35,852 nucleotides of DNA, from positions 1-35,852 of the forward strand of contig DAVT01000079.1 in the NCBI GenBank assembly GCA_002505685.1. The letters run 5' to 3'. The position numbers and the translations under genes were made by a program. The DNA comes from Euryarchaeota archaeon UBA501 (GTDB lineage: Archaea > Thermoplasmatota > Poseidoniia > Poseidoniales > Thalassarchaeaceae). Positions 30,206 through 35,852 of the stretch are shown one piece after another; position 1 is the stretch's first letter; each line of letters starts with the position of its first letter. The notes below the pieces were generated by a model. The model was given only the letters and a program-made list of their open reading frames with translations. It searched no databases and was not told the origin of the DNA.

Positions 30206-30246
30206 AAAAAAAGCCCGCCAGAGGCACCGAAGCGCCTCTGACGGGC
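30206..30246 (-). terminator. Hairpin plus T7 (minus-strand sense) intrinsic-type terminator between convergent sdhB and the MC1 gene; possibly bidirectional
   Basis: Arms 30213-30225 (gcccgccagaggc) and 30234-30246 (gcctctgacgggc) pair at 12 of 13 positions, with an 8-nt loop. The A7 run at 30206-30212 reads as T7 right after the hairpin on the minus strand. The hairpin lies 47 nt downstream of the MC1 stop. Confidence 0.55.
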
Positions 30247-30293
30247 CTGTGTGTTATCTTGTGTTTACCAACTCTAGATTCTTCCGATTCCTA

Positions 30294-31025: not shown

Positions 31026-34000
31026 TTATTCTTCTTCCATAATGCTCAATATTTCAGCTTCTTGTGTATCCACATTCTCTTGTTCTGCCCGATAAATGTC
31101 GATTTGCTCTTGAGTCCATCCGGATCCCAACAATTCTTCATCACTCCATCCTACATTTTCTGTATCGGAAATACCAGCCATTTCTGCAAGACGTTCATCC
31201 GATTCCATTCGATCTTGGCCCGCCCAGGCCTCATCTGGCAACTGTTCGATTTCTTCGATGAATTCTTCTTTACTCCGTGAAAATAGCATGGTTGTGAAAA
31301 TTATGACTAATAGCAATATGGCCACGGTAGTACCGATTACAATTTCATAACTTTCATCCCCGCTTCCTTGTTGAGATGAGTTTTGTTCATCTAGTGGGTT
31401 TACATTTGCTTTCTGAGAATGGATAACCACAGATTCAGTCACAGAGAGTGACGTTTCGTCTAAACAGGCAAAGTATAGCGTGTGATTGGCAGCATCGGTT
31501 CCAGGTGGTGCCCAATCTAGCGTCCACAATCCATCTGTGGAAGGAATGAAAATTTGCGAATAGAGGGTGATGTCATCCTGATCTTTGAGCAGAACTGAAC
31601 ACTCCATGTTTTGGATTCCATCTGCATCGATGATTTCTACAATCAATGTCGAGGAATTTCCTGAAACAAATTCTCTTGGCATTCGGGTGAAATCTAATTC
31701 AGGTTTAGAACCTCGCAATTCAAAAATCAACGTTTCTGAAAGACCGGTAATTCCATCGATATCTCTGAGATTTACTTGTAATTCCACAGAACCTAGTGGC
31801 CACGTCAATAGATAATTTGGCTCTAGGTTGAGCCGGTAATAGTGTGTTTCTTGCCCAGTTCCCGGTGCACAGGATGTAGGCGGGGTTCCCAGTTCAAAGA
31901 ATATTGAACTCAACGAATTTGATAGAGGCCCATTCGGATCTAATCGCATACCTGCATTCTGCACGGGTCTTCCCCCTGCTACTCCAATCCAAATATCCAC
32001 ACCTTCTGCTCCACGATTAATTGAATCGACCGACAAGTCATCTACACACAGTGTAGGTGTCGAAATTTGAGGAGGTGACAAAAACACTGGCCGGGTCCAA
32101 GACCATTCCATTCCATCCCATTTCCCCCCACGAATCTGGGTGGAAATTTCAGCATCTCCTGGTTCTAATCCAGCCGGTGCAGTCACAATTTCCTCCTCAA
32201 GCAACTGCAAGCCTGCGCCTGGCCATAGAATACTCGAGTTCAAATCATATTCAATATCTGGATCATCAGGGTCGCTCACTACAATGAAAATCTGGTCTCC
32301 CCCCCCATCCAAATGATTTTGTTCGGAAATATGCAATTCAGCTATAGGCGGTAAATCAAATGGATTAAGACTACGATTTGACCATTCAACATCTCCTACA
32401 AGTAAAACAACTGAAACAGGTTGAAGGTCCCCTCCAGTTTCTGGTGTCCATGTGGTTTCGTAGCATGTTTTTTCGCCACTGAAACTCGATTGAACGGGAG
32501 GTGTCAATTCTACTCCATCGACGAGGATAGTCGGTCTCTCAGTTTCATTGTTGTGATCTGTATCAATTACACAAGCGGTCATCACATGTTCCTCGCCCCG
32601 TATCCACCCCTCTTGACCGAAAATGGGTTGGTTAAAACCTAGCCAAGGTTCGAGATCGGCATTAGAAACGTGTACTCCAAACCATGTGGCTCTGGCATCG
32701 ATGATTTGGAATGCAGAATCCCAATTGACTTCTGCAGTTTGGTTCTGTAAATCTACGATTACCCATTGTAAATCAACCCGAACAAGTGGAGCATCTACGG
32801 GAATTGAAATTCCAATTTTCCAAACGGTCCCATCGTTTTGAGGAGATGCTGAAATCGAAGTATTTGATGAATCGTTTGTGCCATTGTAGCGCCAAGAAAC
32901 TGTAGCAGAAGCGATTCCAAAATCGTCAGAAACATCGACTTGACAAATGATGATTCCACCTCTTGTTGCAGTCGTTGTATAACAAGTAGTATCTTCGATT
33001 ACAGGTGGACCATTGATACCAATTACGAGGCTTTTCAAATTATTATCCACAATTCTCTCGGGACTTAAATGCGCAGGAATCCACCGAATTAACAACTCGG
33101 AATCTCCGTCTCTAGTTGGGGTGACATTAACCGGCAAGACAAGTCGACTACCGACCTCATTTCCTCCAGGGACTACAACTGAGACATTTGCTAGTAGAAC
33201 GTAGTTCAATCTCTCCCGAATTTCCAAGTAACCATTTGCAACTCCAGGTGCCAGATTTTCCAACAAAACTTCAATCGTGCCATTCTCACCTTCTGACAAT
33301 CGGTTTGGTACCACGACTTCTGAAACATTGATGTCATGTAATCGATCACTATATGCTGCCATTTTTGGGTCTCCAATGACTGTACCCATCCATGAAAGTT
33401 GGACATTTGAAGCGGCATAACATTCCGAAATCGTAAATCCACTAGCATAGCAAGAGAGCAGTTGTTCTGGATTGGATACAGCAGTAAGGTATGGTTCGTA
33501 GACGTATCCCTTGACGCCTGAAACTCCATCATCAAGTAAATCTGACACCAAACTTTGGCCATAACTTGAGTTCATGACAAATGTTCGCCCACCTGTACTG
33601 ACTGCAGTTTCTGCAATACTACCATCCAACCACTCAAAGTGTGGCCGAATCGGATACAATTTGAGTGTATCAAAGAAAATCGAACCATTGTACGTACCAT
33701 CTGAAAATTCAGCCACTTGACGTACTGCCAATTCAGTAGCGTTCATTCCTGGGCGGAATCGGAGTTGTCTCGATTGCCAGTCATCGGAAAAACCTCGTTC
33801 TTGCGATCGATTAAGCGAAACAGAATTTCCATTTTGGTCATAGGCTTCAACTTCCAACCACCAATCTCCTTCAACCCATCCTTCTCGCATGGAATATCCA
33901 TCCATTATCCAGGCGTGTTCGGACAATTCTGAATCGATTTCGAATCGTTGTTCAACGTAAGCGATTGAGTTGTTGGTTGTGTTGAAACTTGGACATATCC

Positions 34001-35852
34001 AAACAATTTCATCATGTACGTCTGCGACTTCTTCGGGCGATAATGCAGTTTCCCAAATTTGAACTTCGTCAATCACGCCTGCGAAATGTGTGTTGCCGGC
34101 CCTGTTAACACCAAATTTGTAGATTTCAATGCTATTCACTGACCCGTTTGGCACACTCTGATTGAGAATCTCAACCCCATTCATGTAAAGTGTGATTGTA
34201 TCGTTTTCAAATGTGGCCACAAGGTGTTGCCAAGCGGTGGGATCCACAGTACCAAAACTGTACGAATTGTTGTGATACAATTCCCAATTACCTGGATTGC
34301 CTCCACTGGTTTGGAACTGGAACGAATCATCATCGCCAGCCACATCGTTCACTGCAATCACCGAAGAATGTCGTGATTGGCCGCTGTGATTTGCCTGAAC
34401 CCATATGCTAACTGTGAAGTCAGATACAGTATCTTCTACATCGACTCTTGCTTCATCATCAATTCCATCAAAGAACGCACAATTGCCCAAAACACAATTT
34501 CTCCACTGGGTACCATTGGTTCCAGAGAAATTGAGGTGTGCATTGCCAACGGAATCGTTGGCTTGATCACCACTGGATTCCTCAAAATCCCAGTAATGCA
34601 TCAATGCATTTTCTCTAACAGGGTAGCTACTCCCTCTAGTGAGAACATTGGTTGGAACGGTTTGCTTTGAGACCCCAGGGCCCTCCCATTTCAATTGCAG
34701 ACCCGCATGTCCACCATGCTCGAAAAATTCGGTTCGCAATTCATGCTCACCAGCCTCTAACCAAACTACACCCGAGCGTTCTCGCATCCCATGGTGGCCT
34801 TGGTTGTCGACAATTTCTACATCGTCAATCCACAATTTACCTCCATCATCACTACTGAGGTAGAAGGTCCAATTACCATCGCTGGGGATGTGGATGATAC
34901 CGGTATGCCGGGCACTCCAATAATCGAGAAAACGACTGTCCAAACCAGTCCATAGGCTGGTGGTTGCCGGCCAATCGATGTTTGGTTCATGGCGAACAAA
35001 ATCAGGTGTTCGGCCAGAGAGATTAACCATCGTGCTTACATTGTAACTGACTCCATTGTTGTCAAAGTACTCTGCGAGGAGACCATTTGTTGTAGATGCG
35101 TCACTTGCTCCACATGGAGCATCTTCCAACCGTCCTTCCATTGCCGCATTCCCATCGCGTTTGGTTTCGGTTTGCCGCGTCCACCACCACTGCTCCCCTG
35201 GTGATAGAGAGGGGCCTACACCATCCCAATGCCGGGAACCTGTTGCCCAACTCCCATCTGAAGTATCGTATCCTGAATTTGGCAACTCATTGTTCGCCCA
35301 TGCACCATCGTTGCTACCCCAAGATGCGTACATTGAAACATTCGACATACCACTCAAGAAGGTTGAGTTTTGGTTGAAGTGCACTGGGAATCCAATTTCA
35401 TTCAAGGATTCATTCGTCGTGTAAAGTAAATCGTTCCACCACTTGTATCCCGATCCATTTCTATTGGTTGCCAAATCCAAAACACTCAGTCCATGTTGCC
35501 CAAAGCTATTGCTTGCCTTGGTAATCAAGCCCAATGCCGTTTGAACATCGTATCCTGTTAACCTAGTTACTAGATAGTATCCTTGCTCATCTCGATCAAA
35601 GGCCTTCATCGTATTCCCTGCCGCCAATCCGTAGTTTGATTCAGCGTACATATCGCCAAAAATTGCTGACATGTATGTTCCATTGATTAGAGATAATTCA
35701 GAATCGAATGAAGCTCTGGAATTTTGCCCTCCATTCACCTTCAATGGAATACCTTTTGTCGTTACTAAGACATTGATTTCAGTCAAATTCCGTTGTGCAA
35801 TCATGTTCGAGATTGGTTCAGAAAAGAATTGTGTGAATTGATTGGAGTTGAT
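31026..35852 (-). CDS. Giant type-I membrane-anchored surface protein (5'-partial): TIGR03790-like domain interrupted by PA14 and LamG/ConA-like domains, Ig-like repeats, TM, acidic cytoplasmic tail
   Basis: 1592 aa from the first Met, but the frame stays open to the window edge (no stop in 35805-35852), so the N-terminus is missing. PA14 region: GLLAEYFDNNG...WSARHTGIIHIPSDGNWTFYLSSDDGGKLWIDD...GLQLKWEGPG. LamG region: LMHYWDFEE...DFTVSIWV...TLYMNGV...IDEVQIWETALSPEEV. TM IVIGTTVAILLLVIIFTTMLF (31281-31343), then an 84-aa acidic tail. Confidence 0.85.
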   Translation of the reverse strand: MNSNQFTQFFSEPISNMIAQRNLTEINVLVTTKGIPLKVNGGQNSRASFDSELSLINGTYMSAIFGDMYAESNYGLAAGNTMKAFDRDEQGYYLVTRLTGYDVQTALGLITKASNSFGQHGLSVLDLATNRNGSGYKWWNDLLYTTNESLNEIGFPVHFNQNSTFLSGMSNVSMYASWGSNDGAWANNELPNSGYDTSDGSWATGSRHWDGVGPSLSPGEQWWWTRQTETKRDGNAAMEGRLEDAPCGASDASTTNGLLAEYFDNNGVSYNVSTMVNLSGRTPDFVRHEPNIDWPATTSLWTGLDSRFLDYWSARHTGIIHIPSDGNWTFYLSSDDGGKLWIDDVEIVDNQGHHGMRERSGVVWLEAGEHELRTEFFEHGGHAGLQLKWEGPGVSKQTVPTNVLTRGSSYPVRENALMHYWDFEESSGDQANDSVGNAHLNFSGTNGTQWRNCVLGNCAFFDGIDDEARVDVEDTVSDFTVSIWVQANHSGQSRHSSVIAVNDVAGDDDSFQFQTSGGNPGNWELYHNNSYSFGTVDPTAWQHLVATFENDTITLYMNGVEILNQSVPNGSVNSIEIYKFGVNRAGNTHFAGVIDEVQIWETALSPEEVADVHDEIVWICPSFNTTNNSIAYVEQRFEIDSELSEHAWIMDGYSMREGWVEGDWWLEVEAYDQNGNSVSLNRSQERGFSDDWQSRQLRFRPGMNATELAVRQVAEFSDGTYNGSIFFDTLKLYPIRPHFEWLDGSIAETAVSTGGRTFVMNSSYGQSLVSDLLDDGVSGVKGYVYEPYLTAVSNPEQLLSCYASGFTISECYAASNVQLSWMGTVIGDPKMAAYSDRLHDINVSEVVVPNRLSEGENGTIEVLLENLAPGVANGYLEIRERLNYVLLANVSVVVPGGNEVGSRLVLPVNVTPTRDGDSELLIRWIPAHLSPERIVDNNLKSLVIGINGPPVIEDTTCYTTTATRGGIIICQVDVSDDFGIASATVSWRYNGTNDSSNTSISASPQNDGTVWKIGISIPVDAPLVRVDLQWVIVDLQNQTAEVNWDSAFQIIDARATWFGVHVSNADLEPWLGFNQPIFGQEGWIRGEEHVMTACVIDTDHNNETERPTILVDGVELTPPVQSSFSGEKTCYETTWTPETGGDLQPVSVVLLVGDVEWSNRSLNPFDLPPIAELHISEQNHLDGGGDQIFIVVSDPDDPDIEYDLNSSILWPGAGLQLLEEEIVTAPAGLEPGDAEISTQIRGGKWDGMEWSWTRPVFLSPPQISTPTLCVDDLSVDSINRGAEGVDIWIGVAGGRPVQNAGMRLDPNGPLSNSLSSIFFELGTPPTSCAPGTGQETHYYRLNLEPNYLLTWPLGSVELQVNLRDIDGITGLSETLIFELRGSKPELDFTRMPREFVSGNSSTLIVEIIDADGIQNMECSVLLKDQDDITLYSQIFIPSTDGLWTLDWAPPGTDAANHTLYFACLDETSLSVTESVVIHSQKANVNPLDEQNSSQQGSGDESYEIVIGTTVAILLLVIIFTTMLFSRSKEEFIEEIEQLPDEAWAGQDRMESDERLAEMAGISDTENVGWSDEELLGSGWTQEQIDIYRAEQENVDTQEAEILSIMEEE

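Follow-up and report, generated by a model that had tools for sequence, protein, structure and literature searches.

A single frame on the minus strand of the window (the whole 35,852-nt stretch of DNA that was analysed, derived from a Poseidoniales (MGII) archaeon) extends over positions 31026-35852, is open at the 5' window edge and encodes a giant surface protein (Table 1). The gene, referred to here as the split gene on account of its interrupted TIGR03790 domain, is among the largest of Poseidoniales. Recovery of the missing 5' end, proposed in an earlier note on this DNA, was accomplished with P0002, a near-identical full-length copy with two differences in 1608 aa that is located on an 87-kb contig of a different assembly. 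P0002 supplied ~101 additional residues comprising the signal peptide and positions 2-49 of the TIGR03790 model, and the same upstream part was found on the window's own contig past a run of N. Conserved and present in single copy, this type I surface glycoprotein of ~1700 aa is seen here as its Poseidoniales (Marine Group II) orthologue, in which a signal peptide, a TIGR03790 head, a ~680-aa stalk, one transmembrane helix and an acidic Trp-bearing cytoplasmic tail follow in that order. The observed number of N-x-S/T sequons was 39, relative to the 16.7 ± 3.7 expected, and an alignment of 34 orthologues revealed that the tail Trp is nearly invariant. The earlier note had placed the domains on a stalk of >1590 aa; a stalk is present, but 1592-1608 aa corresponds to the entire frame in the window. 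In aa 825-1500, where that note proposed Ig-like repeats, no Pfam or PDB match and no internal BLAST repeat was found. In the relatives P0145 and P0131 a CARDB domain directly follows TIGR03790. The split-gene sequence was present in many DNA metagenome runs, and no RNA run containing it was detected among the sequencing runs searched.

Table 1. Features of the split TIGR03790 gene, listed from the 5' window edge to the stop codon.
Feature	Position (nt)	Strand	Residues (window frame)	Remarks
TIGR03790 N piece	35307..35852	-	1-182	HMM 50-227; gene runs on upstream of the window
VLVTTKGIPLKV motif	35736-35771	-	28-39	N piece
YYLVTRLTGY motif	35550-35579	-		N piece
YASWGSNDG motif	35304..35330	-		most conserved family loop; insert starts right behind
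First insert segment	35088..35306	-	183-255	Trp-rich; three predicted beta strands
PA14 domain	34617..35087	-	256-412	SSDDGG 'DD' motif; Pfam PF07691
LamG / concanavalin-A-like domain	34008..34607	-	416-615	Pfam PF13385
Third beta module	33639..34007	-	616-738	ends ...NGSIFFDTLKLYPI; evolutionarily older insert
TIGR03790 C piece	33381..33638	-	739-824	HMM 232-316; motifs AETAVSTGGRTF, GQS..D, GYVYEPY, GDP
GVKGYVYEPY motif	33489-33518	-		C piece
GDPKMAAY motif	33351-33374	-		
Stalk	31341..33380	-		~680 aa; acidic; 13 N-x-S/T sequons; several V.D.D motifs; no family match
Single transmembrane helix	31281..31340	-		VIGTTVAILLLVIIFTTMLF; hydropathy maximum
Acidic cytoplasmic tail	31026..31280	-		~26% D+E; two GW[ST].E[EQ] motifs, then stop codon

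The NCBIfam TIGR03790 model comprises 316 positions and has a curated cut-off of 67 bits. The whole window protein scored 101.8 bits (E 5.1e-29), the first 49 model positions being absent from the window. Each piece also matched by itself, the N piece with E 2.8e-13 (aa 8-182, HMM 50-227) and the C piece with E 9.4e-17 (aa 734-821, HMM 232-316). In full-length orthologues HMM positions 2-229 and 231-316 are covered, and the N pieces alone score 66-91 bits. Since the two pieces lie at adjoining model positions, ~550 residues are placed between HMM positions 227 and 232 and the domain is not contiguous. Of the 66 columns at least 85% conserved among 120 diverse TIGR03790 members, 62 are kept here and four are non-consensus (V129, T247, S871, S910, C912 region). 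The family motifs N..S..S, TTKG.P, VTRL, SWGSND, VST..R, GQS..D, GYVYEP and GDP are all retained, and the Y, S, W, G, S, N and D of YASWGSNDG are each 94-100% conserved in the family. The N and C pieces constitute one TIGR03790 domain with ~550 residues inserted in the surface loop after the invariant SWGSND, in contrast to the 0-15 residues found there in typical members. The protein further differs from minimal members (340-430 aa) in being five times longer and membrane-anchored. The earlier note had suspected this nesting and had named hmmscan with TIGR03790 as the means of deciding it; the nesting is real and conserved across the order Poseidoniales, and every motif quoted in that note was found in its place.

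The inserted PA14 domain matched PF07691 with 66.8 bits (E 2.3e-18, aa 309-400; gathering score 24 bits), and the LamG domain matched Laminin_G_3 (PF13385) with 80.1 bits (E 2.4e-22, aa 474-610, HMM 14-151 of 151; gathering score 27.6 bits). By sequence, the closest solved structures were the PA14 domains of RsgI-type sensors (6qdi, E 5e-26; 6qe7 also matched) and the arabinan-binding domain 4 of AbnA (5hon, E 8e-7). Foldseek searches with the head model retrieved 6qe7 and 6x8a for PA14 and 5hon (TMt 0.73) for LamG. These closest relatives bind plant polysaccharides. The similarity is at the level of the module only, in an entirely different context, and ligand specificity is not transferable. 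The SSDDGG motif (D397, D398, G399) is invariant in 34 orthologues and represents a putative Ca2+-dependent glycan-binding DD loop. No Pfam or NCBIfam match was obtained for the third module (aa 616-738), which is all-beta in the predicted structure. Both the PA14 and LamG domains and the further beta-rich module that had been read from the letters alone were therefore corroborated, the former two by Pfam and PDB matches and the last by the model, and the split architecture with three nested modules is real. The description of the inserts as carbohydrate-binding holds as a statement of type; by homology only, PA14, LamG and the third module are probably of this kind.

In TIGR03790 proteins the N and C parts are separated at a single loop, directly behind SWGSND, by gaps that fall into length classes of 0-15, ~140, ~175, 358 and ~530 aa. 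Other lineages carry inserts of ~80-360 aa in the same loop. In the model of the uninterrupted homologue P0343, residues 244-246 of this loop are the sole low-confidence stretch within the core. A clade with 99% support unites the forms with the big insert and those with the 175-aa insert, the ~140-aa forms being in separate clades, and the loop has received inserts independently at least twice. The ~140-aa insert, which other Thermoplasmatota-type relatives with long multi-domain architectures carry as their only insert, aligned with the third module at an HHalign probability of 98.1% (E 9e-14). The forms with the 175-aa insert contain the first segment and the third module and are devoid of PA14 and LamG, which lie upstream of the third module and are confined to the Poseidoniales clade. 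These comparisons of sequences show that the insert grew in steps, the third module being the older and PA14 and LamG having been acquired later.

In a Foldseek search with the 901-aa head model, matches to PA14 and LamG dominated and no signal was obtained for the core; an uninterrupted homologue was therefore modelled instead. P0343 (370 aa) was predicted to form a single compact domain (pLDDT 90, pTM 0.90). The best matches in the PDB were to gingipain K (6i9a and 4rbm, E 3.4e-5, probability 1.0, TMq 0.45), followed by separase and the Craspase CHAT, the clan CD matches ranging from E 3.4e-5 to 5e-3 with probabilities of 0.87-1.0. The likeness is moderate (TM 0.35-0.45, rmsd ~8 Å (8.4 Å)) and pertains to the homologue, not to the Poseidoniales protein itself. 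In this model, which applies to the uninterrupted homologue, the TIGR03790 core folds into two alpha/beta lobes that form one compact domain, its nearest solved folds being clan CD peptidases, among them gingipains K and R (Peptidase C25), separase and CHAT/Craspase. As in gingipain-type enzymes, two alpha/beta subdomains are followed in relatives by an Ig-like or CARDB-type module. The secondary-structure order in the model of the Poseidoniales protein is the same as in that of the single-domain homologue, suggesting that the N and C pieces pack together in the same manner.

The resemblance to clan CD stops short of the catalytic residues. Across the 120 TIGR03790 members, no column with 85% conservation or more is occupied by His or Cys; lacking the classical His/Cys dyad, the domain could be a pseudo-enzyme devoid of catalysis. 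The spacing of D...W...S in P0343 (188, 239, 270) may parallel the Kgp triad Asp388-His444-Cys477. Pfam PF01364 (C25) matched neither this protein nor 28 core homologues, no Pfam family matched the TIGR03790 core, and PDB sequence and profile searches with the core gave no meaningful match. TIGR03790 was compared by HHalign with 11 archaeal Peptidase_C25 domains, either complete or as their C-terminal halves; none of the local, global and low-MAC modes gave a significant result (probability 0.4%), and homology to Peptidase C25 is for that reason not claimed. The only stretch aligned paired YIVTTKG.P with YVLL.GDaD.P and VTRL with VGR; in the archaeal C25 set an H-G and a C are invariant. Copies of Peptidase_C25 are absent from Poseidoniales genomes, in contrast to up to 20 or more in other Thermoplasmatota. 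The earlier note had expected the nested modules to yield a functional handle on TIGR03790; a handle was obtained, a clan CD-like fold without the His/Cys dyad, although of another kind than anticipated.

Considered together, the domains point to a glycan-directed surface enzyme or adhesin. The account that we regard as reasonably probable is a membrane-anchored surface glycoprotein whose lectin-type modules present glycans to a TIGR03790 pocket, which cleaves, modifies or binds them. The family-wide invariant polar residues would line a pocket at the C-terminal ends of the beta strands, the position of the active site in clan CD enzymes. The candidate residues (full-length numbering) are D227, S278, S281, N282, D283, T850, S853, T854, R857, Q867, S868, D872 and E887; that they form one pocket with the insert above it is suggested only by sequence order and secondary structure. 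The lectin-type modules, carried on the loop beside the pocket, could keep glycans or glycoproteins from algae or particles in contact with it, and the head might then cleave or modify the polymer at the cell surface, or at the least bind it firmly there, in what would be a heterotroph living on high-molecular-weight organic matter. A PA14 module inserted in a catalytic domain is known from enzymes such as GH3 beta-glucosidases. Here too an alpha/beta domain accommodates PA14 in one of its loops, beside conserved residues, and by analogy this placement points to a possible role in shaping or gating substrate access. Unlike those enzymes, the TIGR03790 host is not a known glycoside hydrolase, and three modules are nested rather than one, gained in at least two steps.

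A more specific version, which must be considered rather unlikely, holds that TIGR03790 is an unrecognised enzyme family of clan CD fold, with His/Cys replaced by Ser/Thr/Asp chemistry at S853-T854, the SWGSND loop and D227, and that Poseidoniales have turned it into the catalytic head of a lectin-guided surface hydrolase. The three glycan-binding modules would then have been stacked step by step into the loop between the former 'His' and 'Cys' positions, feeding algal glycopolymers to the site. If so, the protein would be a major tool of the most abundant surface-ocean archaea against high-molecular-weight organic matter.

The chief alternative is that the protein is purely an adhesin, the TIGR03790 core being a dead pseudo-peptidase scaffold that presents the modules on the stalk for attachment to particles, algae or cells. 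The lack of a conserved His or Cys is consistent with such a role, as are PA14 and LamG, which are classic adhesin and lectin modules, the long glycosylated stalk with its membrane anchor, and the loss of the gene in streamlined genera with genomes of 1.3-1.5 Mb. The archaellin genes of these archaea have been proposed to mediate adhesion (PMC6461757), and the split gene partially co-occurs with them: 31 genomes contain both, 7 the split gene alone, 6 archaellin alone and 17 neither. This association is, however, confounded by phylogeny, the counts by genus being 8, 3, 1 and 4. Against a scaffold, the core keeps ~20 polar residues at 92% conservation or more from archaea to distant bacteria, in proteins only ~30% identical, exceeding what a scaffold needs. 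Moreover, uninterrupted TIGR03790 proteins are widespread in bacteria, with >596 loci devoid of any lectin module, indicating that the core has a function of its own. These proteins are often small and lipoprotein-like or T9SS- or dockerin-tagged, and the domains fused to TIGR03790, namely dockerin, T9SS sorting domain and beta-helix, are those commonly seen in secreted enzymes. The adhesin explanation is possible, if somewhat doubtful.

The split gene was detected in 38 of 61 Poseidoniales genomes representing all three families, as a single copy in one frame of ~1700-1900 aa, and its >400 homologues all contain PA14 and LamG. A large, sequon-rich, broadly conserved single-copy protein with a C-terminal anchor could be the main S-layer-like envelope glycoprotein, its domains structural rather than ligand-directed. 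Entire genera (g4-g7 and g9) lack the gene in genomes 91-97% complete, which shows that it is not an essential envelope component, and the head consists of modules resembling those of enzymes and lectins, not of lattice-forming domains; this explanation is improbable and was rejected. That the split is an artefact, either an assembly chimera or two TIGR03790 remnants no longer forming one domain, is scarcely credible and was rejected on the conservation data: the window ends within the gene, a run of N lies just past it and the source genome is a 64%-complete MAG, but 38 independent genomes and hundreds of metagenome contigs show the same layout in a single open frame, as does the near-identical copy from the other assembly, and the pieces join at adjoining model positions with the family invariants retained in both.

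Poseidoniales are the most abundant archaea of surface seawater and are still uncultured. To our knowledge, their encounter with and degradation of polymers have been deduced from gene lists only. The results provide the first structural and evolutionary handles for the uncharacterised TIGR03790 family, which comprises hundreds of bacterial and archaeal loci: a predicted fold relationship to clan CD, candidate active-site residues and a hot-spot loop repeatedly grafted with binding modules, by which function becomes directly testable. New here are the fold likeness of the core, the insertion loop used at least twice and the order of module acquisition. No paper mentioning TIGR03790, or dealing with Poseidoniales together with PA14, was found in a literature search, and the MGII genomics papers examined, including PMC6461757, do not mention the split protein. 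The annotation of orthologues at NCBI and JGI already reads 'TIGR03790 family protein'.

No operon partner of the split gene was found in the window or on the 87-kb contig, where the neighbours are housekeeping genes (MC1, succinate dehydrogenase, Macro, arginase, and peptidases M14 and M17). Across 80 bacterial and archaeal TIGR03790 loci, no neighbouring family recurred in more than 9 of them; DegT and GT2 were recurrent beside TIGR03790 within Fimbriimonadaceae only.

A hidden Markov model of NCBIfam family TIGR03790 matched the whole protein with an E-value of 5.1e-29 and a score of 101.8 bits (curated cut-off 67). Scanned alone, the N piece (aa 8-182, numbered in the window frame) matched model positions 50-227 (E 2.8e-13) and the C piece (aa 734-821) positions 232-316 (E 9.4e-17). 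Since both pieces abut in the 316-position model (227 and 232), approximately 550 residues are interposed between nearly adjacent positions. The proposal of an earlier note that PA14, LamG and a third beta-rich module are nested in a TIGR03790-like domain was thereby borne out, both flanking pieces being matched rather than one, and every motif it quoted was located where it had placed it. The insert contained Pfam matches to PA14 and Laminin_G_3, followed by a third module (aa 616-738) without a match in Pfam or NCBIfam that is all-beta in the predicted structure. In the window protein YASWGSNDG precedes the insert and FEWLDGSIAETAVSTGGRTF follows it; uninterrupted members have GY.SWGSNDG, 10-20 variable residues and W.PGAIAET.VSTSARTF. 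Public annotation already covers the family assignment and both the PA14 and the LamG domain. No description was found of the nesting or its origin in steps, of the loop as an insertion hot spot or of the relationship in fold, and the literature searched contained no mention of TIGR03790.

The minus-strand frame 31026-35852 is open at the 5' end and encodes 1608 residues inside the window, which comprises the first 35,852 of the 46,346 bases of a contig from a 1.5-Mb MAG (64% complete). The gene is cut off at the window's end by a run of N that comes next in the contig. The missing 5' end, which the earlier note expected on a neighbouring contig, was recovered from the same contig past this run, where the frame resumes with a signal peptide and the domain start VRSRLALALVLLLALQSWSAVS...YSDVAVIINNQSEES. 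The start codon is GTG in the window's own genome and the first residue is M in P0002, a full-length copy of 1709 aa on an 87-kb marine metagenome contig that differs at 2 of the 1608 residues. Sequons of the N-x-S/T type numbered 39 compared with 16.7 ± 3.7 in shuffled sequences, and nearly all were outside the tail. The signal peptide, the C-terminal transmembrane helix and tail, and the sequon excess therefore indicate a type I surface protein, probably heavily N-glycosylated, that bears the TIGR03790 head distally. The tail motifs, which may be a docking site for a cytoplasmic partner, read GWSDEE and GWTQEQ; similar motifs, EGWTLEE and EGWSDEQW, were observed in the distant orthologue P0084.

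Features of the giant gene and its downstream region (aa, residues of the window frame)
Feature	Position	Strand	Remarks
5' end of gene	35853-36479 of own-genome contig C106 (locus L002)		N run ~405 nt; corresponding P0002 stretch ~93 nt
PA14	aa 309-400, within insert		Pfam, E 2.3e-18
Laminin_G_3	aa 474-610, within insert		Pfam, E 2.4e-22
Transmembrane helix, single	aa 1505-1524		C-terminal
Tail, 84 residues	31029-31280	minus	~26% Asp+Glu; two GW[ST].E[EQ] motifs
Small basic protein, 89 aa	30294-30563	minus	Downstream of giant gene; counterpart on 87-kb contig matches Pfam MC1 (archaeal chromatin protein)
Strong GC-rich hairpin, 17 bp, with T-run	30211-30248	minus	After gene for 89-aa basic protein

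The TIGR03790 core was without a Pfam family and without a PDB sequence relative in single-sequence and profile searches. The Poseidoniales head was modelled (aa 40-940, pLDDT 82.8, pTM 0.60), and its Foldseek matches all derived from PA14 and LamG (RsgI 6qe7, the MpIBP PA14 domain 6x8a, AbnA domain 4 5hon and trans-sialidase lectin domains); therefore, P0343, an uninterrupted homologue of 370 aa, was modelled instead, with 28 short members in the alignment. The whole chain was placed confidently as one unit (pLDDT 90.0, pTM 0.90), the only internal stretch of low confidence being residues 244-246, the insertion loop directly after SWGSND (238-243). In the C-terminal lobe, strands preceding the loop alternate with strands following it (E184-188, E217-221, E233-238 / E259-267, E296-300, E340-344), and the elements of the C piece follow one another in the same way in the Poseidoniales model (E801-814, H829-837, E841-846, helices and a terminal strand). 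An independent C-piece domain of 85 residues and three strands is not plausible, and the models suggest that the N and C pieces very likely pack as one domain.

The best PDB matches to P0343 were the gingipain K structures 6i9a (E 3.4e-5, probability 1.0, TMq 0.45) and 4rbm (E 7.9e-5, probability 1.0, TMq 0.43), followed by separase protease domains (5fby, 5fc3, 9hn0, 5mz6 and 5u1s) and Craspase's CHAT protease (8d9f). These enzymes all belong to clan CD; the remaining matches had probabilities below 0.5 and TM below 0.2. Thus, with this homologue as query, the predicted TIGR03790 core appears to be of the fold type of clan CD peptidases, the similarity being moderate. Membership in a clan CD peptidase family was nevertheless rejected, since HHalign against archaeal Peptidase_C25 was not significant (probability 0.4%, E 0.14) and no His or Cys was among the 66 columns at least 85% conserved in 120 diverse TIGR03790 members. 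When 11 archaeal Peptidase_C25 domains were aligned, their invariant H-G and C were kept. The conserved columns include, in full-length numbering, N64, S67, S70, R81, E100, T133, K134, R198, D227, Y276, S278, W279, G280, S281, N282, D283, T850, S853, T854, R857, Q867, S868, D872, E887 and W922. The spacing D188...W239...S270 in P0343 may parallel the Asp-His-Cys spacing of gingipain K; were these residues equivalent, the insert would be placed at the edge of the active-site cleft, between what were once the 'His' loop and the 'Cys' strand.

We lean, with modest confidence, towards a glycan- or glycoprotein-directed surface enzyme in which the nested lectin modules would serve as substrate-capturing lids. 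The degree and kind of core conservation argue for an enzyme, as do the small stand-alone members, which number in the hundreds and occur in Ignavibacteriota, Bacteroidota, Acidobacteriota, Armatimonadota, Planctomycetota, Gammaproteobacteria and Thermoplasmata, the tandem paralogues frequent among bacterial genes (79 loci, within L016-L095, with 115 family members), and the fusions to dockerin, T9SS sorting domains, NosD-like beta-helices, NHL propellers and CARDB, a repertoire typical of secreted degradative enzymes. Glycan targeting is suggested by the nearest solved PA14 and LamG relatives, which bind polysaccharides, and by a PA14 DD motif invariant among orthologues. The lost clan CD dyad counts against an enzyme and is also expected of a pseudo-enzyme adhesin; a pure adhesin seems to us less likely. 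PA14 domains inserted into enzymes are already known; the finding would gain greatly in importance if the core turned out to be a new type of catalyst with the clan CD fold.

With the N piece as query, an exhaustive phmmer search returned 692 relatives, in each of which the N-to-C gap was measured. A gap of 0-15 aa was found in most members, minimal proteins of 340-470 aa among them; many proteins of 800-1500 aa, one labelled Thermoplasmatota archaeon, had gaps of ~130-150 aa; two had ~175 aa; gaps of 80, 161 and 358 aa occurred in one protein each; and the Poseidoniales clade had 490-530 aa. PA14 and LamG were missing from both 175-aa forms, which did contain the insert's first segment and its third module. 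A profile of the ~140-aa insert matched the Poseidoniales third module with an HHalign probability of 98.1% (E 9e-14). A maximum-likelihood core-domain tree united the big-insert forms with the 175-aa forms in one clade (SH-aLRT 99) and distributed the ~140-aa forms over other clades, among uninterrupted members. On the well-supported branches of this sequence tree an insert is required to have been gained at least twice, and the 80-, 161- and 358-aa inserts are separate events, the loop thus being an insertion hot spot. The most economical history has two steps, an early beta module in the loop and later, in the Poseidoniales lineage, PA14 and LamG upstream. Because one of the 175-aa proteins was weakly placed (support 83), it could instead have lost PA14 and LamG secondarily.

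More than 400 homologues of 1650-1970 aa all contained PA14 and LamG; those with a named source were from Poseidoniales, Poseidoniaceae or Thalassarchaeaceae, and several were already annotated 'TIGR03790 family protein'. The orthologues P0060 and P0061 (~1965 aa) have an extra GLEYA domain (PF10528) beside PA14 and LamG, and the lectin array is therefore still variable within Poseidoniales. The family was present in 38 of 61 genomes spread across the order, one copy per genome, and in all three families. The N part (HMM 2-229) was essentially always ~1.9-2.3 kb from the C part (HMM ~231-316) in one frame of 1700-1900 codons, the deviations being broken contigs. Within Thalassarchaeaceae five genera lacked the gene, four with genomes of 1.3-1.5 Mb (91-97% completeness). 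The archaellum operon has been proposed as an adhesion mediator in Poseidoniales (PMC6461757). Of the 61 genomes, 31 had both the gene and archaellin, 7 had the gene alone, 6 archaellin alone and 17 neither; the corresponding genus counts are 8, 3, 1 and 4, so that taking phylogeny into account leaves a weak association.

None of the 10 Poseidoniales genomes sampled contained Peptidase_C25, nor did one other genome from their class; in some Thermoplasmatota families it is massively expanded, with 20-24 matches per 1.2-2.1-Mb genome (loci L004-L015). No neighbour was conserved across phyla in the bacterial TIGR03790 loci; a DegT aminotransferase and a GT2 glycosyltransferase recurred beside the gene only in Fimbriimonadaceae. 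TIGR03790 fusions to type I dockerin and right-handed, NosD-like beta-helix domains were found in P0166, P0177, P0161, P0197 and P0264, one of these fusion proteins, of 1858 aa, having NHL propellers, Big_7 and a peptidoglycan-binding domain.
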